Positions 3,726 to 28,173 of a DNA stretch of 32,006 nt are shown one piece after another; within the stretch, counting starts at the first letter, position 1; the number at the start of each line of letters is the position of its first letter. The stretch lies in NCBI GenBank assembly GCA_035764995.1, contig DASTYM010000445.1, positions 1 through 32,006 on the forward strand, given 5' to 3'. Position numbers and translations under genes: made by a program. This DNA comes from Cyclobacteriaceae bacterium. Its GTDB lineage: Bacteria; Bacteroidota; Bacteroidia; Cytophagales; Cyclobacteriaceae. A model generated the notes under the pieces. The model did no database searches. It was not told where the DNA came from and was given only the letters and a program-made list of their open reading frames with translations.

Positions 3726-3794
3726 AAATATTGTTTAAACTCATTTACCCGGTGAAGTCATAAGGCATCGGTTAAGGTAGTAGTTTAAACACAA

Positions 3795-3832
3795 GTGCCC
3801 GGTGAAGTCATAAGCATCGGGTACTTTTTTTT
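3795..3832 (+). terminator. intrinsic terminator after the haloperoxidase-like gene
   Basis: 10-bp stem gtgcccggtg/catcgggtac (two G-U pairs), 10-nt loop, then T8 (3825-3832). A decayed copy without a T-run lies at 3733-3772. Confidence 0.7.
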
Positions 3833-8619: not shown

Positions 8620-10464
8620 TTGAAACATATTTTTACGTTGCTGCTTTCACTGGTCGTGGGAGTAGTTGCCCAATCACAATCCAAGTCATTTCCGATTGAT
8701 CACCGCCATCACCTGGAACTGCTGGGGACGGCTAAGGATTCACTTTACCAGCAAATAGTAGATCGCTACGATCAATACATTCGTGAGAACCCTCTGCATG
8801 TAAAAGTGCAGCTGGAGCGATGTAAGTTTATCCAGTATGCCTACTACGATGAGTACGAAGAATACAATCCGAACGAAGAAGCAGCAGAGGAATGTGCCCG
8901 GAAATTACTGAGCGCATTTCCTGAAAATCCGGAAGCTATGTTGTACGCCACCAATTTTTTGTATGGCGACACCCTCTATAACTACCTCGTTCACCTGGAA
9001 GGATTAGCTGAATTTGACTCGGGGGCATGGAAGGACTTCCGTTGGGACATTCATCAACAATTAGCCTATCAATATAATTATGGTGAAAGAGAAGATCATG
9101 ACATGGTAATCCTGTATGGTCTTAAGGCGATGGCATCCAATGATTCGCTCGATCTTTCCGCCATGGTGGCTGAATCCTATCAAAAGCAAAACAATAAAGA
9201 ACTGGGCGTTAAAATTATTCTGGAACACTTTGATTCTACAAATGGAGCATGGGAGTTAAATAGAAAAGCCCAACTGTTGCTGGAGTTTGGTGAATCAACC
9301 AAAGCAATGGAACTATTCCGACTTGCAGCGCTGCGTGACTCCGTGAATGAAAATGCAAGCTTGCTGGCAAAGGCTATGATTGAAAACGGGTTGATTGCTG
9401 AAGCACGCGACTATCTGGTGAAAGCTTACAAAACGGGAGGGCAATGGCAGGAGGATGAACACCTGTTCGATCTCCTTAATTATGATATTCAATATGGAAC
9501 GGCTGACTCCGCCAGTGCTACTTACCGCAAATTTACAGCCTCACATTTCTATAACGACCCGGTTGGCCTGTACCGATTGAGGATGATCGCTAAAGCCCCA
9601 CTCATGGGCTGGACGTTTGGAGACATCGGAAGAGTGTTACTTTTTGTTGCTGCAATTATCATTGTTTTGATTGTCCCCTACCTGTGGGTTCTACCTATTC
9701 ACTACATCGGGAATTACCTGAAGCAAAAAGGGAAAGTTTTTGACGATGCCACATTCCGCTGGACCTTAAGACACTTTTGGATAGCGTGTTCCATTTGGTT
9801 CTTTTGCGATGTACTTACTGTCATCTTGTTCGACTACCCGGTTATTATATCCTGGTTCAATGACAAGTTTACCAGCGAGGGATATGAATTAATCAGTAAT
9901 CACTATGCGAATCTTACGCTGTTTTTTTCATGTGTAGTCATGTTGTTCACATTTATATTCTTGAACTGGGAGGATATCACACGCTTTTTTCTTAAGCTCC
10001 GTTCAAACACCGGGTTGATTTGGAAAGGCATTGGCATAGCCTTTCTGTTACGCTTTGGTTTTGGAATTTACTATGTAGTGTTAAAGCTGTTTGGTATCGA
10101 TTTAAAGGTGAATGCATCCGGTTTTGCAAGCGTTACAGATTCTGTTGTTTCAATCAATCAATTTTATCATCCCTTGTTGGGCTTGTTGATCGTAGCAATC
10201 ATTGTTCCCATTTATGAGGAGATTTTATTCCGTGGAGTCTTCCTTTCGGCATGCCAACGCAACATGACATTCTATGCAGCTAATATTTTACAAGCAATTG
10301 CTTTTGCATCATTGCATGATGATTACCGGCTGCTTCCATTTTACATTGCCTTTGCCATGGCAGGTGGTTACTTTACTCGCAAGACAGGCAGTTTGATTAC
10401 AAGTGTATCCATGCACATGACTAACAATTTACTGGTGTTTATTGGTATAGTCTTTACACACTAG
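8620..10464 (+). CDS. TPR-like N-terminal domain fused to CPBP (CAAX/Abi) intramembrane protease
   Basis: TTG start; a stop lies 27 nt upstream in frame and there is no ATG within the signal peptide MKHIFTLLLSLVVGVVAQSQ. About 320-aa helical-repeat region, then about 8 TM helices with the CPBP motifs YEEILFRGV, FASLHD, HMTNN. Confidence 0.75.
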   Translation: MKHIFTLLLSLVVGVVAQSQSKSFPIDHRHHLELLGTAKDSLYQQIVDRYDQYIRENPLHVKVQLERCKFIQYAYYDEYEEYNPNEEAAEECARKLLSAFPENPEAMLYATNFLYGDTLYNYLVHLEGLAEFDSGAWKDFRWDIHQQLAYQYNYGEREDHDMVILYGLKAMASNDSLDLSAMVAESYQKQNNKELGVKIILEHFDSTNGAWELNRKAQLLLEFGESTKAMELFRLAALRDSVNENASLLAKAMIENGLIAEARDYLVKAYKTGGQWQEDEHLFDLLNYDIQYGTADSASATYRKFTASHFYNDPVGLYRLRMIAKAPLMGWTFGDIGRVLLFVAAIIIVLIVPYLWVLPIHYIGNYLKQKGKVFDDATFRWTLRHFWIACSIWFFCDVLTVILFDYPVIISWFNDKFTSEGYELISNHYANLTLFFSCVVMLFTFIFLNWEDITRFFLKLRSNTGLIWKGIGIAFLLRFGFGIYYVVLKLFGIDLKVNASGFASVTDSVVSINQFYHPLLGLLIVAIIVPIYEEILFRGVFLSACQRNMTFYAANILQAIAFASLHDDYRLLPFYIAFAMAGGYFTRKTGSLITSVSMHMTNNLLVFIGIVFTH

Positions 10465-11405: not shown

Positions 11406-11520
11406 GTTTTATTGTTTAATCCGTTTATTAAAAGCTACAAGCTGCAAGCCTTATGCTTCAAGCTTGTTTTGGCTTCGAGTTATGAGTTATGAGTTTCGAG
11501 CCTTGAGTCTTAATCCCTAT

Positions 11521-11576
11521 GTCATCGCGGACTGCATGTGCTGTTGGATGTGGGTGATCCGCGATCTATTCGGAGG
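11521..11576 (+). repeat. REP-like hairpin element (C-type stem)
   Basis: gtcatCgcggA...TccgcGatctattcggagg. Confidence 0.7.
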
Positions 11577-11613
11577 ACCGTTCCTCAATTCCCTCTACTC
11601 CTATACTCCTAAT

Positions 11614-12272: not shown

Positions 12273-12361
12273 TGGTGAGAATTAATATCTGCCAAGTTGG
12301 GGGATTTCGAAGGAGTTAGGAGTTAAGTAGATTAAGTAGATATGGAGTCACTGCCTAATAC

Positions 12362-12418
12362 GTCATTGCGGACGGCACGTGCTGCGAGGATGTGGGTGAT
12401 CCGCAATTTATTCGGAGG
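12362..12418 (+). repeat. REP-like hairpin element (T-type stem), left half of inverted dimer
   Basis: gtcatTgcggA...TccgcAatttattcggaggg. Confidence 0.7.
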
Positions 12419-12433
12419 GCATTATACCATTAA

Positions 12434-15519: not shown

Positions 15520-15581
15520 CTGTGAGCGCTGAATTAGGCCACAAGCTGCGAGCTTCAAGCCACAGCTCTGCTCCATTTCAC

Positions 15582-15637
15582 GTCATTGCGGGCAGCAGGT
15601 GCGTGGGTTTGTGCGTGACCCGCAATCTATTAGAAGA
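15582..15637 (+). repeat. REP-like hairpin element (T-type stem), left half of inverted dimer
   Basis: gtcatTgcggG...CccgcAatctattagaag. Confidence 0.7.
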
Positions 15638-15653
15638 TTCGATAAAGAGCATG

Positions 15654-15701: not shown

Positions 15702-15868
15702 GTTGGCTTTAAAAAAGTTTGTAGCTTGAGGCTTTACTCAAATTTCAATGTCGATAATTAAGCATAATGCTTACTTCCTCTTCAAACCTCGCTCAACAAT
15801 TTCAGCCTCAAGCTCTTCGTTGACACCTAAAAGCTTATAGCTTGAAGCTTAAGGCTTGAGGCTATTCC

Positions 15869-19909: not shown

Positions 19910-20242
19910 AGGGGCCTCGAAATTTTAGCTATTGGGTTACAAATAAAGCAGATATCGACCACAAAAGAACCAAACCTTTTGGATTCAGTTTTGTCAGAAA
20001 TAACGAATTTCTTACAGCGGGGGTGGTTTTATTTAAAAATTGGTTTTACAATAGGCCAAAGGGACTATTTGGGCTTAAAGCTCTCTCAGGACACCATTTT
20101 AATGAGGACAACAATAGAGCTTCAAGCTTTTTGAGCTTCGAATTGCTAGCCCGAGCTTTGCATACTGCCTAATGCCTACTGCCTACTATATTTATTTGAG
20201 CTTAAAGTCTCAAGCCTCAAGTTGCAAGCTCTCTCGCGGCAT

Positions 20243-20298
20243 GTCATTGCGGGCTGCTGATGTAGTGGCAGTGCGCGTGAACCGCAATCTATTCGGAG
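20243..20298 (+). repeat. REP-like hairpin element (T-type stem)
   Basis: gtcatTgcggG...AccgcAatctattcggagaa (one stem mismatch). Confidence 0.65.
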
Positions 20299-20340
20299 AA
20301 TTCGCTACATGAGGTTTTTCCTGGGTCAATTGGTTTAACT

Positions 20341-20878: not shown

Positions 20879-20992
20879 ATTAGTCCATAGTCAATAGATT
20901 AGTCCATAGTCATTAGTACATAGTACCTGGTACTTAATAACAAAGACTAATGACTAAAGACTAAGGACTAATGACTAAGTACTAATGACTAG
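20879..20992. repeat. long imperfect low-complexity palindrome (tagtc-rich arm / gacta-rich arm)
   Basis: Left arm has tagattagtccatagtca twice. Right arm has gactaatgacta-like units three times, the reverse complement of the left-arm words. Centre at gtacctggtac. Confidence 0.6.
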
Positions 20993-21639: not shown

Positions 21640-21692
21640 GTCAGAATTTACCGGATTTTAGAATTTTCAGAATTAGTCCTCTCTCCTTACGT

Positions 21693-21764
21693 GTCATTGC
21701 GGGCAGCGGAGGGGGTGGTCCCGATAGCTATCGGGAGTGCGTGACCCGCAATCTTTTCGGAGAA
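21693..21764 (+). repeat. REP-like hairpin element (T-type stem) with nested perfect palindrome
   Basis: gtcatTgcggG...CccgcAatcttttcggagaag. The loop carries the perfect 18-nt palindrome tcccgatagctatcggga (21719-21736). Confidence 0.7.
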
Positions 21765-21859: not shown

Positions 21860-22075
21860 TTACCCCTTAAACAACTCTATCAACGGCTCTTCCAGGGCAT
21901 TGGCTACTTCATTCAGAGTATAGAGTGTAGGATTGGTGTTTCCGCTTTCTAAGCGTTCGATGCTTTGACGATCTTTGATGCAGGCGCGGGCAAGATCTGA
22001 TTGCGTCCACCCCTTTTTCTTACGAAGGTAAACGATTCGCTTTCCAATTTTCTTGGCCAGTTCTTGTTTTTTCAA
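21860..22075 (-). CDS. XRE-family (Cro/CI-type) HTH regulator
   Basis: 71 aa, TTG start. IGKRIVYLRKKKGWTQSDLARACIKDRQSIERLESGNTNPTLYTLNEVANAL is a textbook HTH_3 pattern. Confidence 0.8.
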   Translation of the reverse strand: MKKQELAKKIGKRIVYLRKKKGWTQSDLARACIKDRQSIERLESGNTNPTLYTLNEVANALEEPLIELFKG

Positions 22076-22416: not shown

Positions 22417-23411
22417 TCAGTTAAATATGTTGAATCTAACTTTGTAGTGATAGGACAAGTATTCATTTCCTAAATCTTTTCTTCGGTATGCTAACGGTTG
22501 ATTATGAAATGGATTTTTATCGTCTATATGTTCAATTAAATTATTTGATGGATTTATCGCTATTGACCCGTAATCAAATTCTGTGTGATGAGTGGGACAA
22601 AGAATAATTATATTTTCCCTCACATCAGGGCCTTGATGTTCTCCCCCTAAGGGCTGAAGATGATGCCCTTCTGAATAGTAACCTGTATTCGGAAGTAAAA
22701 TATTGCTGCCACAAATCTGACACATCCAATTATTCTCCTTCTTGATATTCCTACTAAGCTCGGTATCTCTTATTATTCTTGATACGATTGTATCAACTCG
22801 ACCTGGAGGATTATAGTCGGGATTTTGGGGTTCATTTAAAGTTGGAATAATTTCCTGACTACCAAACACCGGATTAAATCTAAATGTATCGGACCAATCG
22901 CTGAACAAACGATAAAGGTCTCCAGAACATCTTGCGATATATCTTTGGGCAACTCTTAGTTGCTTTTCTTTACCATATTCATTAAAAAAGAATTTAGTTG
23001 ACCCTTTCGTATTTTTCTCAATGAATGATCATAGGATTTAAAAAAATCCGTGACGAGAGCAGGTTGACTCAGCCTTACAAAATTTATCAAATTTATTCTC
23101 TGATATGGACCCATTTTGTTCCAATTATCCGGATGCGGGGGAGCAAATGAACTCTCAAGCAAAGTAGAACTGACGATAGAGACCCCATACCAATGATATT
23201 GATCATTTACGTCAACAAGATGAATTATTAAATCTCCATGACTTATCTGACTCATTATTCTCCATGCTCGAGCCCGTTTTTTATCCCAAACAGGGCTCCA
23301 TAAACATGTCCCCAATTCCCAACCAGTACCACCATGCCTTGGGTTGGTTATTTCGATAAACACACTTTGTCCGTAGTTTAATTCTGGTAACAAGCTGTGG
23401 AGTTTTAGCAA
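22417..23411 (-). pseudogene. reader-like (PUA/EVE-type?) domain + HNH endonuclease, interrupted by a 1-nt frameshift
   Basis: ORFs 23411-22956 (TTG start) and 22908-22417 are in different frames. The second frame is open upstream to 23028 and reads SFIEKNTKGSTKFFFNEYGKEKQLRVAQRYIARCSGDLYRLFSDW.., overlapping the end of the first. C-terminal HNH finger: CQICGS...EGHHLQPLGG...ENIIILCPTHHTEFDYG. Confidence 0.6.
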
Positions 23412-23613
23412 TATTACTTAACTACCCCTTGATAAAGACTTTTTTGTAAAAAAATTCTTGATTCTCCGACTTTCATGACCTTGCAGCGATTGGTCATTTC
23501 TCTAGTAATTGATTTTTGGTCCTTATTTATTAGATTTAAACTAGGAGCCCGTTTTTGCATAGCCGTGTGCTATGCGACATTGATTCATTCGAAATAGCCA
23601 GCCTATCCCCAAA

Positions 23614-25440
23614 ATGGCAAGTCACTACAAAATTCAAAAAAAGTGGATCGACAACTTCACCAAAAGTCCATTCGTAAATAGATCCACTGGAAAATTTAAA
23701 AAGGAAATAGCGATACAATGTTTTCACGGCAAAAGCGAAGATGCCTACGATGCTTCGTACCCCGAAAACTTCGATAACTTTTACAACACACATTATTTAC
23801 TGGGAAGATTAGAAGCTGTCGAAATAACCTTGAAATTTCTTCATTTCATTGGAATAAAACTTAACAAGCATGCTTTGGTATCTCACTTGGAAACCTTTCC
23901 GGATGAGTACCACAAAGTTTTGAAGAAGTGCTACTACCTATTTAGAACAATGACTAATTACAATGAAACACTAGACATTCATAATCCATATCACGACAAT
24001 TATTGGGATATTCAATACTTCATTAAAATCGAGTCAGGTCAAACTCAACTTGCGATCTTTCACGATGCTGATTTACCCGAGCTCTACAATAAAGTCCTAA
24101 AACTCCCTGACGGTTATGATAGCGATGAAGTAATCACAGAGCTTTTTAAGGATATCGAAAACTCCAATGATAGCTTCTTCATAACAGGTAAAGCTGGGAC
24201 TGGTAAATCGACCTTCATTCATTACTTTACTCAAAAGACCTCAAAGAAAGTTCTTTTAACAGCATTTACAGGTATAGCAGCCATAAATGTTGGTGGAGTA
24301 ACAATCCATTCCTTTTTCAAATTTCCACTTCGCTCTTTATTGCCGGGTGACGAAGAAATTAAAATCTTTCACGAGGATGACCAACGGAGAAAAATTATTA
24401 CTGAAATCGACACAATTATAATCGATGAAATTTCTATGCTCAGGGCCGATTTACTTGAGGCAATTGACTACTCGCTTAGAAAAAATGGAGGTGACGCGGG
24501 AATGCCTTTTGGAGGGAAGCAAATTTTATTCGTGGGAGACCTCTTTCAACTGCCCCCTGTAACTGATTCATCTGAGGTCGATAGATTTATATTCAAGGAG
24601 ATTTTCAACAGTCCCTATTTTTTTGATTCCCGGGCTTACAACGAGCTCAATCCTAAATTCTTTGAATTTAAGAAACCAAAAAGGCAGAAAGATGACTTGG
24701 AATTTGTTAAGCTACTGGACTCAGTGAGGGTTTGCGAGATCAGTGATTCAAATCTTGATAAACTCAACCAACAGGTGAATCCTAATTACGTACCGGACTC
24801 TAAAGATTTTGTCATTACCCTCACCGTAAACAATGCAATCGCCAATGAGGTGAATGAACACAGATTAAATGAACTTCCTTTCACAAAGCACATTTTTAAT
24901 GCAGACATAAAGGGCGAGTTTGATGAAAATCGATTTGCGACAAGTCCATTGCTAGAGCTAAAACAAAAAGCGCAGGTCATTTTCATAAAAAATGACTCCA
25001 CTGGTCAAAAACGCTGGGTCAATGGAACAATTGGAAAAATTGAGTTCATCACCGATGACATGATCGAAGTAATGCTTCCCGATAAAAGCGTTCACGAGAT
25101 AACGCGTGAAACGTGGGAGTTCCGAGGTTATAAATACGATAAATCAAAAAGAAAGGTCACATCGGAAGTAAAGGGTACGTTTACGCAATTCCCAATTAGG
25201 TTAGCTTGGGCTATAACGATTCATAAAAGTCAGGGTCTGACTTTCGACAAAGTAGTAGTCGACTTAGGCTCAGGAACATTTGTGAACGGACAGCTTTATA
25301 CAGCATTAAGTCGTTGCCGAAAATTGGATGGGCTAATTTTAAAACGAAAAATAAAACAACAGGATGTTATTCACGATAAGCGATTAATAGAATTCTATAA
25401 TTCTTTACTTAGCTCCACCAACAACACTAACCAATCATAG
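23614..25440 (+). CDS. Pif1/RecD-family SF1B DNA helicase with an unassigned N-terminal domain of about 185 aa
   Basis: Walker A ITGKAGTGKST; motif Ia LLTAFTGIAAINVGGVTIHSFF; Pif1 signature block IIIDEISMLRADLLEAIDYSLRKNGGDAGMPFGGKQILFVGDLFQLPPV; motif VI AWAITIHKSQGLTFDKVVVDL. Confidence 0.85.
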   Translation: MASHYKIQKKWIDNFTKSPFVNRSTGKFKKEIAIQCFHGKSEDAYDASYPENFDNFYNTHYLLGRLEAVEITLKFLHFIGIKLNKHALVSHLETFPDEYHKVLKKCYYLFRTMTNYNETLDIHNPYHDNYWDIQYFIKIESGQTQLAIFHDADLPELYNKVLKLPDGYDSDEVITELFKDIENSNDSFFITGKAGTGKSTFIHYFTQKTSKKVLLTAFTGIAAINVGGVTIHSFFKFPLRSLLPGDEEIKIFHEDDQRRKIITEIDTIIIDEISMLRADLLEAIDYSLRKNGGDAGMPFGGKQILFVGDLFQLPPVTDSSEVDRFIFKEIFNSPYFFDSRAYNELNPKFFEFKKPKRQKDDLEFVKLLDSVRVCEISDSNLDKLNQQVNPNYVPDSKDFVITLTVNNAIANEVNEHRLNELPFTKHIFNADIKGEFDENRFATSPLLELKQKAQVIFIKNDSTGQKRWVNGTIGKIEFITDDMIEVMLPDKSVHEITRETWEFRGYKYDKSKRKVTSEVKGTFTQFPIRLAWAITIHKSQGLTFDKVVVDLGSGTFVNGQLYTALSRCRKLDGLILKRKIKQQDVIHDKRLIEFYNSLLSSTNNTNQS

Positions 25441-25451
25441 AATTGCACCAT

Positions 25452-26495
25452 CTAGTTCTCGTCCTTATAATATAGTTTATAGTACTTCCTTCCATCTTCA
25501 TCGACCCCTCTTTCGATTAAATCTCGGTTGCCGTGGATATACACATGGAAGTTTTTATCAAGCTTTAATACGCTTTTAAAAATTCGTGCCTGCTTTTTAA
25601 CAGCGAAGTTGGAGATGGTGAAGCTATCGGCAATGTCTATTTCAGCTCCTTGCTCGTATTCAGATTTGTACTTTTTAAAGCGGTTTATCAAACCGGGCTG
25701 TTCAATTACTTCATTGGCAAACTCTTTAAAGTTGAAGGAGTCTTTTTCTTTAAAGAAGTTGATGGACTTATTCAGCAAATCGGCTTCATCGGCCTTTGAA
25801 AATTCTCGATCCTGTGATAGCTCTTTGGTTATAAAATTTTTAGCCAGCGATAATGTGTTTTGGGTGTGGCTGTAATCGTCTTTTCGATGTGTTAACTTGA
25901 GAAAAGTATCAACCCAATAAATGGCATCTTCTCCCCTGTTGGAATTGTCTACCACTACTGCGGTATAACCATTTTCGCGCTCCCTGTTAAAGATGATACA
26001 CCCTTTATCGAGTTTGTTAATGTTGATACCTTTATCGGTTTCTACTTCATAGATATCCTCCACCGGCCGAACTTTCAAAAATGTGTCTTTATTTTCTGAT
26101 TTGAATAGTCCAACCGCGTCAACAGTTTCGCCTTCAATCATGCAGTCCTTAAAATGAACTACATAAAACTCTCCTCCTTTGATTTTCGCATGGGTGCTTA
26201 CGTCATATAAATGCCGCGCCAGGAAAACGGATTGGTTATAAAGTCGGCCGGGGTTGTCGAAGACTTCACTTACAAACGTGAAGACCTCGTTGAGCTTTAA
26301 ATCGCCACTGCTGTGAAAGAGGTTAAAATACCCCTCAGATTTAAATGACGAGGTGAAGTATGACACGAGGGTTTTATTGAGCTCGCCTTCCACTTTAGTG
26401 ATTTTCTTTGAGAGAAAGATTCCATCATTGTTGGATTTGTTGCCAACGTTGTGGATGGCGAGGGAGGAGATCTCGGAGACTTGGAAACTACTCAT
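25452..26495 (-). CDS. nucleoid-associated protein, NdpA/YejK (NA37) family-like
   Basis: The N-terminus SSLAIHNVGNKSNNDGIFLSKK and a length of about 345 aa fit Bacteroidota NdpA-family proteins. This is recognition from memory only. Confidence 0.6.
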   Translation of the reverse strand: MSSFQVSEISSLAIHNVGNKSNNDGIFLSKKITKVEGELNKTLVSYFTSSFKSEGYFNLFHSSGDLKLNEVFTFVSEVFDNPGRLYNQSVFLARHLYDVSTHAKIKGGEFYVVHFKDCMIEGETVDAVGLFKSENKDTFLKVRPVEDIYEVETDKGININKLDKGCIIFNRERENGYTAVVVDNSNRGEDAIYWVDTFLKLTHRKDDYSHTQNTLSLAKNFITKELSQDREFSKADEADLLNKSINFFKEKDSFNFKEFANEVIEQPGLINRFKKYKSEYEQGAEIDIADSFTISNFAVKKQARIFKSVLKLDKNFHVYIHGNRDLIERGVDEDGRKYYKLYYKDEN

Positions 26496-26727
26496 GGTGT
26501 TGCGCGTGAATTGGGTGTCAAAAGTAGGTTAAATAGCTGCAAGCTTCAAGCCTCAAGCTGCAAGCTAGTTTGGGTACGAGATTGCGTTTAGCGTGTAAAG
26601 CTTTTTTGTTAGGGCACGCCCAAATCGTCTTCAGTCAATAGTCATTAGTCATTAGGCAGTATGTATTAGGTATTAGGTATTAGGAAGTAAATCTAATCAA
26701 AGGGAGGTGGTCTCTTCTTGAAATAAA

Positions 26728-27498
26728 TTAATACCAGTAAAACTCTAGCAACGTGATGCCCAGGTTGTAGGTGAAGTGACCGATTACTCCGTACCAGAGG
26801 GTGTTGTAACGATATCGCAGGAAGGCAAAGGCAAGTCCGAGGGGAACGAGCCAGAGCATGCTGATGAATGCGAGGTGAATGATGCCAAAAATAAAACTGG
26901 TGATATAGATTGCTCCAATCGGTGATGAAACGCGCTGCAGGTTGTTGAACATAAATCCTCTGAACGCTACTTCCTCAAAAATGGCTGGTTGAACACAGAT
27001 GAATAGAATGGATAAGAGCATCGGATAAGGTGTGTCGCCAAAAAGGTACGGGTTATAGAACACATCGTGGTCGCTGATCGAAATCTGAATGAGGTCGGCC
27101 AGGAAGAATATGCTTAGGCTGCCAAGTAGTGCTCCGAGAACAGTAAGGATTGCTACCGAAAACTTAACATTCGCAAAAGAGAAAAGCGGTTTTACTTCGT
27201 AGTGGTTGTAGACCCAAAAAACAATTACAATAACGATATCGATGACGCTCACAACAAGCATTCCGTTAATACCTTCCGGGAACGTAGATGTGAACTTGTA
27301 AACTATTAAGAGAATAAGTGTAATGAAATAGAATAGCAGTACAGGTCCAAGATGTTCGAATACATCGGTAGGATGATGGGCCTGTACCTCGTGCTTAATT
27401 TGTTTACCACACTTTCCGCAAAAACGCGCATCAGTCTGAATAACCGTTGAACAATGCGGGCATCGCGGGGAATCCGAAACTGTTTGTTCAAGCTCCAA
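26728..27498 (-). CDS. N-terminal zinc ribbon + CPBP (CAAX/Abi) intramembrane protease
   Basis: TTG start overlapping the upstream gene by 11 nt. CPHCSTVIQTDARFCGKCG ribbon, about 7 TM helices, CPBP motifs FEEVAFRGF, FGIIHL, GHFTYN. Confidence 0.75.
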   Translation of the reverse strand: MELEQTVSDSPRCPHCSTVIQTDARFCGKCGKQIKHEVQAHHPTDVFEHLGPVLLFYFITLILLIVYKFTSTFPEGINGMLVVSVIDIVIVIVFWVYNHYEVKPLFSFANVKFSVAILTVLGALLGSLSIFFLADLIQISISDHDVFYNPYLFGDTPYPMLLSILFICVQPAIFEEVAFRGFMFNNLQRVSSPIGAIYITSFIFGIIHLAFISMLWLVPLGLAFAFLRYRYNTLWYGVIGHFTYNLGITLLEFYWY

Positions 27499-28024
27499 CA
27501 GGTGCTGCTTTTAGTTTTTCTAACTCAGCCATCGAATGCTTCGCTTCCTGTGCTGAACGAATGCCTTTTACAAATCCGCCAATAAAAATAATTTTCAAGA
27601 TGATGCCCGAGAACATCGTGGTTGGATCAAGGAAAGCGTTCATCAGTTGTACAGTTATGTATAAGATCAGTGCGGTAAGGATCGCACCAAATGGATTTTG
27701 CGTGCACCATGCAGCCAGAATGAGATATATAATACACAAGACAACATTCACTACCATGCCTTGAAAATCTTCGGTTTCACCAAATCCCTGAATGAGGCCT
27801 TGAATAAGTGCGAACCCAGCCATCACCAATATGATGATGCGCGCTTGTTGAATTTTTTTATCGGCTTCTTTTAGCAATCTTTTTTGTGAGCCAATGTGTT
27901 CGCGGAAGATACGCTTCTCATCAACAGTACCAGCCATTGGGAAACTGCACTGAGGGCAAAACTTGAGAGTAGAATCGTTTTGAATGCGACAATTGTCGCA
28001 CACGATGGTTGAGGTTTGGTCCAT
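27488..28024 (-). CDS. N-terminal zinc ribbon + four-TM membrane protein
   Basis: The ATG at 28024 (MDQTSTIVCDNCRIQNDSTLKFCPQCS) is preferred over the TTG at 28063. A charged helix is followed by about 4 TM segments. Confidence 0.55.
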   Translation of the reverse strand: MDQTSTIVCDNCRIQNDSTLKFCPQCSFPMAGTVDEKRIFREHIGSQKRLLKEADKKIQQARIIILVMAGFALIQGLIQGFGETEDFQGMVVNVVLCIIYLILAAWCTQNPFGAILTALILYITVQLMNAFLDPTTMFSGIILKIIFIGGFVKGIRSAQEAKHSMAELEKLKAAPVGA

Positions 28025-28173
28025 AGGTTTCGCAAAACAGTGAGAATAAATTGGAATATGCAAATGGAATTATCCTGTAGGTTAGTCCAAGTGACTCACT
28101 TCATCAGCAATAGTCACAAAGGAGTATTAGCATTAGCCCAAAAGAACATCACTCCACCTAAGACACTAGCATT

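Follow-up and report, generated by a model that had tools for sequence, protein, structure and literature searches.

Background

The characterised restriction enzymes that join a PUA-superfamily domain to an HNH nuclease, VcaM4I and TagI, act alone (PMC7897488, PMC6765204), and the open reading frames (ORFs) of PUA nucleases are rarely found near methyltransferases (Lutz et al. 2019, PMC6765204). VcaM4I has a base-flipping reader, which is the model used below for the mechanism proposed for a nuclease of this kind (PMC7897488). The cellular role of the bacterial Pif1 helicases is a question of long standing (PMC3113762). A gene for a PUA-like/HNH nuclease and a gene for a Pif1 helicase lie next to each other in a 32,006 nt stretch of a Cyclobacteriaceae genome (assembly GCA_035764995.1, contig DASTYM010000445.1, positions 1 to 32,006), which is referred to here as the window. 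A first-pass annotation made from the letters of the sequence had proposed that the two are one undescribed defence module, consisting of a sensor-nuclease and a helicase. The analysis presented here suggests instead that these are probably two functionally independent genes that occupy a small variable patch, within an otherwise ordinary segment of a Bacteroidota chromosome, and not a two-gene system.

The locus and its base composition

The nuclease and helicase genes diverge from a 202 bp spacer, and the helicase stop codon is separated by 11 nt (25441-25451) from that of the convergent next gene (Table 1). These coordinates, as first annotated, are confirmed. The five hand counts of G+C in single 60 nt lines on which the first-pass annotation had based its view of the base composition (21, 20, 27, 27, and 28) were likewise all exact on recomputation. 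The nuclease gene (GC 0.369) and the helicase gene (0.377) have the two lowest values among the 28 genes of the window, with the remaining genes at 0.397–0.496. For the 3024 bp region containing both, the GC content is 0.373, against a mean of 0.4215 (standard deviation 0.0217) over all segments of equal size. The contig minimum for a 3 kb segment is 0.3717, starting 33 nt upstream of the region, which is itself within 0.002 of this value. Only 0.14% of the segments are equally low, and these overlap the region without exception; among segments clear of it, the lowest GC content is 0.390. The GC dip therefore holds in a sliding-window computation and is real but modest, at approximately 2.2 standard deviations.

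At third codon positions (GC3) the two genes differ. The nuclease has the lowest values in the window (0.30 and 0.34 for the two ORFs into which it is divided) and is the only gene that is clearly atypical, whereas the helicase, at 0.389, is low but within the range of several other genes (0.34–0.40). Att-like direct repeats, a tRNA, and an integrase were sought on the flanks of the 3 kb region and not found, and no boundaries of an insert emerged. The 202 bp spacer contains no exact match to the Bacteroidota -7 motif TAnnTTTG, and a scan of it for sigma-70-type promoters and for terminators was uninformative. Alignment of ten helicase upstream regions, comprising the spacer and those of nine orthologues, revealed no shared operator or other element.

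Neighbourhoods of the two genes in other genomes

Conserved adjacency across unrelated genomes is expected of a two-gene system, and this was not found. Twenty loci with full-length nuclease homologues were fetched, of which 15 are independent (13 from species-representative genomes, with 7 metagenomic places giving two more), and the 7–10 kb around each homologue was searched. None of the 15 has a Pif1 relative in this span. On the helicase side there are 13 independent contexts in which the helicase has the same N-terminal domain (N-domain) as that in the window, along with 75 metagenomic loci that have a related Pif1 core, here called sister loci. Neither the PUA/HNH nuclease nor any HNH relative is near the helicase in any of the 13, nor near the Pif1 core in any of the 75. 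There is also no conserved neighbour of any other kind among the 13 N-domain contexts. For the nuclease, no recurrent partner was found in its loci beyond the genus-level synteny of Chryseobacterium, save a generic XRE-type helix-turn-helix (HTH) gene that is described with the other features of the window. The sensor-nuclease/helicase module is already largely refuted by this missing co-occurrence.

The surroundings of the homologues are varied. One nuclease homologue (in locus L090) stands alone among housekeeping genes, and another (in L094) belongs to an island that also carries GmrSD, an MmeI-like gene, and an integrase. The GC content of the nuclease homologue is below that of its flanks in 13 of the 15 loci. 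Eight of the 13 helicase contexts are without a restriction or known defence system and without mobile-element genes, containing mainly metabolic or regulatory genes, and one further context carries a zeta toxin only. The position of the helicase varies even among Chryseolinea genomes. It had been stated in advance that N-domain orthologues sitting mostly alone in conserved housekeeping synteny would speak against the module; the orthologues are indeed mostly alone among unrelated genes, however their synteny is variable and is not one of conserved housekeeping genes.

The pair had also been likened to the named nuclease-helicase systems. A PADLOC scan of both proteins matched no Gabija (GajA/B), Hachiman (HamA/B), Nhi, or Hhe model. 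Partial matches of the helicase to PDC-S68 and PDC-M16A were returned, covering only the generic superfamily 1 (SF1) core of these much longer models.

The nuclease gene

The nuclease is encoded on the minus strand by two ORFs in different frames, 23411..22956 (151 aa) and 22908..22417 (163 aa), with the frame break at a run of six T. Addition of one T to this run joins the frames and restores the homologous sequence QLNSFFNEYGKEKQLRVAQRYIA, and the repaired junction agrees with the family consensus F[YF]xxYxxxxxLRxAQKYLA. Over 100 proteins of 321–335 aa can be aligned with the repaired product across 97% of its length, the best of these having 64% identity. Intact homologues are present in Bacteroidota, Firmicutes (Bacillota), Actinomycetota, and Bdellovibrionales, and in one metagenome-assembled genome labelled Woesearchaeota.

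The HNH/CCCH finger is complete, as had been read from the sequence. Its motifs in the repaired protein are CQIC (aa 231), GHH (aa 249), ENII (aa 266), and CPTHH (aa 272), all invariant in 52 homologues and in keeping with the catalytic His/Asn/His and CCCH zinc site of an HNH domain, and the Pfam matches to HNH_2 (35.7 bits, aa 231-287) and HNH (23.3 bits) are both above the cut-offs. Against PDB sequences, the HNH module matches TagI (6ghs, E 4e-17, aa 202-296) and EcoKMcrA (6ghc, E 1e-6), and is therefore of the McrA/TagI type by sequence. Weak partial matches of the C-terminal part to NCBIfam PT-DNA_restrict and to PADLOC mREase_IV were also found.

The N-terminal part has no Pfam match at E<=0.01, either in aa 1-200 of the repaired protein or in the intact homologue P0001, with EVE, SRA-YDG, ASCH, and YTH included in the search. 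The nuclease is therefore assigned at the superfamily and architecture level only. The AlphaFold2 model of P0001, made with 52 sequences, has a predicted local distance difference test score (pLDDT) of 90 and contains a beta-rich N-terminal domain, a disordered linker, and the HNH domain; its residues 1-181 are modelled with confidence (means of 10-residue blocks 85–98). In a Foldseek search of the PDB with the full-length model, the EVE-HNH enzyme VcaM4I is the first match (E 2e-11), followed by the SRA-HNH enzyme TagI, and EcoKMcrA is also matched. The N-terminal domain matches EVE/THYN1 (5j3e), MJECL36 (2p5d), PH1033, ASCH, the McrB N-terminal domain, and YTH, with target-normalised template modelling (TM) scores of 0.5–0.64 and, for most, a probability of 1.0. 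These comparisons of the model support a reader-like fold of the PUA superfamily, EVE-like, for the N-terminal 150–170 aa or so. Both the PUA-superfamily reader and the EVE-HNH/SRA-HNH architecture that the first-pass annotation had recognised are thus borne out, VcaM4I and TagI being the top full-length fold matches. Residues E14, H20, G21, G22, W25, W32, W44, D54, H58, and Y97 are invariant in the 52 homologues. This architecture is a known one among the modification-dependent type IV restriction enzymes, and by analogy with these the nuclease is putatively modification-dependent.

In P0116 (Pfam EVE), P0114, P0111, and P0117 this HNH module is joined to a different N-terminal domain. Alternative N-terminal domains on one HNH module are the sensor shuffling that is typical of type IV, or modification-dependent, enzymes (PMC6765204). 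A homologue search with the N-terminal domain by itself returned the ORF of the window and one weak match, probably due to a word-index limit. In a plasmid search (PLSDB), the nuclease was matched in its HNH domain only, with the full architecture absent. There is no DNA methyltransferase domain in the 28 window proteins scanned, which agrees with the survey of Lutz et al. 2019 (PMC6765204).

The reader and the HNH domain are not in one intact frame, being separated by a 1 nt frameshift. As read, the full enzyme cannot be made, and the gene is either a pseudogene or an assembly error. It is possible, though less likely than not, that the frameshift does not represent decay, and instead either arose as an error when the homopolymer was sequenced or assembled, with the enzyme intact in vivo, or is an on/off switch for phase variation. 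Homopolymer indels are a frequent assembly error and phase-variable restriction genes exist. The break falls exactly within the T6/A6 run, and the two halves have no other stop codons, retain all of the invariant residues, and are highly similar to intact homologues. On the other hand, a tract of 6–7 nt is short for efficient slipped-strand phase variation.

The helicase gene

The helicase matches Pfam PIF1 (PF05970) with 106 bits against a cut-off of 25.9, the match starting at aa 181. Walker A (aa 192-199), motif II (DEISM, aa 271), the Pif1 signature FGGKQILFVGDLFQLPPV (aa 299-316), and motifs V and VI were located in the sequence. The full set of Pif1/RecD motifs that had been annotated is therefore present, in agreement with the Pfam result and with the fold. 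In a phmmer search of the PDB, the core matches Sulfurihydrogenibium Pif1 (8bns, E 8e-108) and Bacteroides Pif1 (5fhd/5ftb, E ~5e-76). Foldseek with the helicase model gives E ~1e-41 to 1e-39 and target-normalised TM scores of 0.87–0.89 to 6s3i, 7oar, and 5fhd (Thermus oshimai and Bacteroides Pif1); this comparison of the whole helicase is dominated by the Pif1 core and is silent on the N-domain.

The unassigned N-terminal extension, which had been put at about 185 residues, is approximately 175 residues and without a Pfam or PDB profile match. Profile searches with the N-domain against PDB sequences and Pfam gave chance-level matches only. In the AlphaFold2 model, aa 1-140 are predicted to be all-alpha (pLDDT 80–95 as means of 10-residue blocks), and a disordered linker follows. 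The N-domain has 43 representatives in a library of 1.84 billion proteins, in essentially all cases at the N-terminus, and the proteins that carry it are of about 600–1220 aa or are short fragments. The Pif1 genes from 80 viral contigs, and those from the 75 metagenomic sister loci, lack it. Similarly, the search of plasmids (PLSDB) with the helicase gave matches to the core only, the N-domain architecture being absent.

More than 8000 homologues of the helicase were found. The top 119, besides the protein itself, have 53–65% identity over 91–100% of the length (nearly all over 97–100%), and include proteins from Chryseolinea, Cyclobacteriaceae, and Mucilaginibacter. The helicase is a genuine bacterial Pif1 of the SF1B type from a large Bacteroidota clade of Pif1 proteins of about 600 aa, and its orphan N-domain is confined to that clade. 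Its polarity would be 5'-3', as carried over from its bacterial Pif1 relatives.

Defence genes near helicases with the N-domain

Defence or restriction genes are present within about 7 kb of the helicase in 4 of the 13 N-domain contexts. In L084 there is an integrase and HTH_17 core, then Pif1, followed by CBASS, AbiE, and a type I restriction-modification (RM) system. In L177 an EVE-McrBC system is divergent from the helicase, with type I RM immediately downstream. PDDEXK_4 and type I RM are present in L259, and HTH-M78 and a type ISP RM system in L097. The helicase upstream sequence is shared between L177 and L259, which are therefore one lineage with different flanking cargo. With an HsdM probe, type I RM was found in 3/13 N-domain loci and 0/75 sister Pif1-core loci (Fisher p 0.0026, or ~0.018 with L177 and L259 merged), in a sample that is small and partly non-independent, with probes drawn from the positive loci themselves and with sister loci of lower mean length (8.8 kb, compared with 12.6 kb for the N-domain loci). 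Together with the window, L177 brings the loci in which the helicase is divergent from a type IV system with a PUA reader to 2 of 14, PUA-HNH in the one and EVE-McrBC in the other.

These contexts suggest that the flanks of the N-domain Pif1 are a variable region in which restriction genes come and go, which is a lead rather than a result and would also account for the arrangement in the window. A stronger form of this explanation is that the N-domain Pif1 clade resides in defence islands or mobile elements, with its flanks being a hot spot for the gain and loss of restriction systems. The helicase could then act against invaders, by itself or as a general accessory, or it could replicate or maintain integrative elements whose cargo includes defence genes, and the type IV gene of the window would count among this cargo. 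Beside the 4/13 here, a published baseline has 4–8% of genes (loci of YejK-like nucleoid proteins) at most 10 kb away from a known defence locus (10.64898/2026.04.06.716658). The type I RM contrast, the variable synteny within Chryseolinea, and the GC content of the N-domain helicase gene, which is below that of the flanks in 6/7 loci, also point in this direction. However, 8/13 contexts have no restriction, known defence, or mobile-element genes, the N-domain clade was found neither on plasmids nor in viral contigs, and the contrast is subject to the sample, probes, and locus lengths described above. In addition, Bacteroidota often have several Pif1 paralogues for which a housekeeping role is unclear (PMC3113762). 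Residence of the clade in defence islands or mobile elements is considered unlikely. It is quite unlikely that the clade is an unrecognised component of defence islands as such, either as a partner-agnostic helicase that is near, or assists, diverse restriction systems, or as a marker or maintainer of the hot spot.

The proposal that the PUA-HNH nuclease and the N-extended Pif1 form one undescribed defence system, with the nuclease sensing modified DNA and the helicase translocating or unwinding to assist or license cleavage (cf. Gabija, Hachiman, and Nhi), draws on the adjacency, divergence, and low GC of the genes, on the similar arrangement in L177, and on the partial PADLOC matches, but is highly improbable given the absence of each gene from the loci of the other, the restriction of the PADLOC matches to a generic core, the single-protein action of the characterised relatives, and the presence of a frameshift in the nuclease and not in the helicase.

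Some further features of these loci were noted. The L084 segment, with the same element in L085, is a Cyclobacteriaceae integrative element. Its apparent core consists of a tyrosine integrase, the HTH_17 gene, two unknown genes, and the N-domain Pif1 orthologue, and its cargo of CBASS (CD-NTase, Cap15-like, and HNH), a SocA/Panacea antitoxin-like gene, AbiEii, and type I RM. The McrB of L177 has N-terminal DUF8426 (PF28530) and EVE domains. In precomputed annotation DUF8426 is also on the P0114 HNH module, which suggests that DUF8426 is another exchangeable sensor of DNA modification; the fusion was not confirmed by the Pfam scan. L177 and L259 both have a PDDEXK_4 (PF14281) protein of approximately 370 aa close to the helicase and to type I RM, located on opposite sides of the helicase in the two, which indicates that the flanks have been rearranged within one lineage.

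Interpretation

The preferred reading remains that of two independent genes. In the nuclease, the EVE-like PUA reader would flip a modified base from invading DNA into an aromatic pocket, with which the invariant W25, W32, W44, D54, H58, and Y97 are consistent. Cleavage close by would then fall to the C-terminal HNH domain of McrA/TagI type, which is probably dimeric. The helicase would be an autonomous 5'-3' Pif1 that needs no nuclease partner, and the two genes may have become neighbours when horizontally acquired DNA was inserted, either beside the helicase or along with it. The folds, the motifs, the frameshift, the GC anomaly, and the lack of conserved adjacency were shown here; the base flipping, modification dependence, and dimeric cleavage, as well as the helicase polarity, are drawn from VcaM4I, TagI, and bacterial Pif1.

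Several points weigh against this interpretation. The case for an insertion is made from base composition, the nearest relative of the helicase has no more than 65% identity, and the helicase GC3 is not clearly foreign. Modification dependence of the PUA-like subfamily is taken from its relatives, the reader here matching none of the Pfam EVE, SRA, ASCH, and YTH families. The helicase sample is small, at 13 contexts, with L177 and L259 in one lineage. The 4/13 contexts that have restriction or defence genes may leave room for a looser functional link to restriction. In L177 the EVE-domain McrBC is divergent from the helicase, which is the same arrangement as that of the PUA-HNH gene here.

The nuclease belongs to a widespread family of type IV HNH enzymes with an EVE-like reader that is missed by current Pfam, and annotation pipelines therefore label its members only as 'HNH endonuclease'. 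The modification specificity of this PUA-like/HNH family could serve for epigenetic tools. The hint that a large Pif1 clade tends to lie beside restriction systems provides a concrete hypothesis on the role of bacterial Pif1. A sensor-nuclease/helicase module, if true, would be a new defence system, however the evidence argues against it.

Other features of the window

The coordinates of the features are given in Table 1. The XRE-type HTH gene to the left of the nuclease has counterparts in two other loci, such that a small gene of this type adjoins the PUA-like/HNH gene in 3 of 16 loci (the window, L007, and L094). In L007 and L094 it directly precedes the nuclease homologue, in the manner of a controller gene. 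The XRE-HTH gene is a possible regulatory companion of the nuclease, an idea that is weakened by the generic similarity of these proteins (~30% identity) and by their different positions.

To the right, the gene that is convergent with the helicase encodes a YejK/NdpA-like 37-kDa nucleoid-associated protein (NA37), is 232 bp from the nearest upstream gene on the same strand, and was not found beside the helicase orthologues. Nucleoid proteins of the NA37 type have been reported as infection sensors (PANGU) when in an operon with an effector (10.64898/2026.04.06.716658). A PANGU reading of this gene was rejected, as it has no effector on the same strand at a gap of less than 40 bp.

Table 1. 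Positions of the genes, domains, and repeats in the window and of selected features in other loci.
Feature	Sequence	Position	Strand	Remarks
Nuclease gene	Window	22417..23411	-	PUA-like/HNH type IV restriction endonuclease, frameshifted; repaired product 331 aa
Nuclease N-terminal part	Window	22956..23411	-	EVE-like PUA-superfamily putative modified-base reader; wrong-frame tail after the frameshift
Nuclease C-terminal part	Window	22417..22983	-	Linker and HNH (beta-beta-alpha-Me, CCCH zinc finger) of McrA/TagI type
T6 homopolymer	Window	22984..22989	-	A6 on the plus strand; site of the frame break, from sequence and three-frame translation
Divergent intergenic spacer	Window	23412..23613	.	202 bp
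Helicase ORF	Window	23614-25440	+	608 aa
Helicase N-domain	Window	23614..24036	+	aa 1-141, predicted all-alpha, clade-specific; disordered linker aa 144-161
Pif1 core	Window	24139..25440	+	aa 176-608, all SF1B/Pif1 motifs
XRE-type HTH protein	Window	21860..22075	-	71 aa; Pfam HTH_3; 341 nt downstream of the nuclease, same strand
YejK/NdpA-like nucleoid-associated protein	Window	25452-26495	-	Pfam NA37 E 4e-33; GC3 0.483, native-like
Intergenic repeats of ~75 nt	Window	11507-11580, 12360-12420, 15568-15640, 20229-20300, 21679-21763		Five copies
Low-complexity arrays	Window	20898-20991, 26627-26683 (also 11433-11464, 15832-15863, 20199-20230, 26535-26566)		Intergenic
Inverted array copies	Window	~20947-20991 and 26627-26683		
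CPBP protease or neighbouring membrane protein gene	Window	26728-27498	-	
CPBP protease or neighbouring membrane protein gene	Window	27488-28063	-	
Genes of the CPBP group	Window	8620-10464	+	
Direct repeats of 32 nt	Window	3733-3764, 3783-3814		88% identical, spaced 50 nt
Small XRE-HTH gene	L007	9776-9997		
Small XRE-HTH gene	L094	6649-6984		
Integrative element	L084	3549-17830		Same element in L085
McrB with DUF8426 and EVE domains	L177	3024-5645	-	
PDDEXK_4 protein	L177	824-1924		
PDDEXK_4 protein	L259	8947-10080		

No other defence or mobility genes were found in the window. Its remaining genes are ordinary chromosomal ones, among them GreA/B, MarR, AraC, DinB, CPBP proteases, transglutaminase-like proteins, and tRNA-Thr. 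The intramembrane proteases of CPBP/Rce1-like type are encoded by two genes. One of these and the overlapping membrane protein gene carry N-terminal zinc ribbons, and the overlap of 11 nt between the genes starting at 26728 and 27488 suggests a small operon.

Three kinds of repeats are present. The intergenic repeat of about 75 nt has the core GTCATTGCGGRC...GTGAYCCGCAATCTATTCGGAGA and an 8–9 bp hairpin in which two pairs show compensatory changes. It has the look of a repetitive extragenic palindrome or a miniature inverted-repeat transposable element and matches no Rfam family. One copy is between a lipoprotein gene and the XRE gene, just to the left of the nuclease and helicase region. The low-complexity arrays are made up of TAGTCAT/TAGTACT-like and AGCTTCAAGCCTCAAGCT-like units, and the inverted array copies bracket a 5.6 kb segment that runs from the lipoprotein gene through the XRE, nuclease, and helicase genes to NA37. 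The pair of 32 nt direct repeats is intergenic and downstream of a gene encoding a PAP2-domain protein.

Comparison with known systems

The PANGU-like YejK/NA37 defences (bioRxiv 10.64898/2026.04.06.716658) have in common with this locus a gene of the NA37 family, here 11 nt from the helicase stop. Their nucleoid protein is in an operon with an effector, whereas the NA37 gene here is convergent, native-like in GC3, and without an operon partner. Gabija (GajAB), Hachiman (HamAB), Nhi, and Hhe are superficially the same in having a nuclease gene beside an SF1 helicase in low-GC DNA. Their helicases are UvrD-like, Ski2-like, or Upf1-like, and that of the window is a Pif1 of SF1B; they are conserved operons or fusions, while the pair here is divergent and its adjacency is not conserved.

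The solved Pif1 structures (Bacteroides 5fhd/5ftb, Thermus oshimai 6s3i, and Sulfurihydrogenibium 8bns) correspond to the core of the helicase, aa 176-600, with 34–41% identity in the fold-search alignments. The helicase differs from these in having an extra alpha-helical N-domain of about 141 aa and a disordered linker, with no PDB profile match.

TagI (SRA-HNH, 6ghs) and EcoKMcrA (6ghc) have HNH domains homologous by sequence to that of the nuclease and the same order of reader followed by HNH. In the fold search the reader here is nearer to EVE, ASCH, and YTH than to the SRA of TagI, and it is unrelated to the N-terminal domain of EcoKMcrA. The VcaM4I/TspA15I EVE-HNH group (PDB 6yex; PMC7897488, PMC6765204) differs from the nuclease in its reader, that of the window being unmatched by any Pfam model and identity being approximately 15%, in its linker, which is helical and not disordered as predicted here, and in that the copy here is frameshifted. 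It nevertheless shares the whole architecture, in which a linker connects an N-terminal reader of the PUA superfamily (about 150 aa) to a C-terminal HNH domain (about 120 aa), and VcaM4I, the best full-length fold match, is a single-gene system without an adjacent methyltransferase. In light of these comparisons the locus contains nothing categorically new, and is a known kind of restriction enzyme beside a common helicase.

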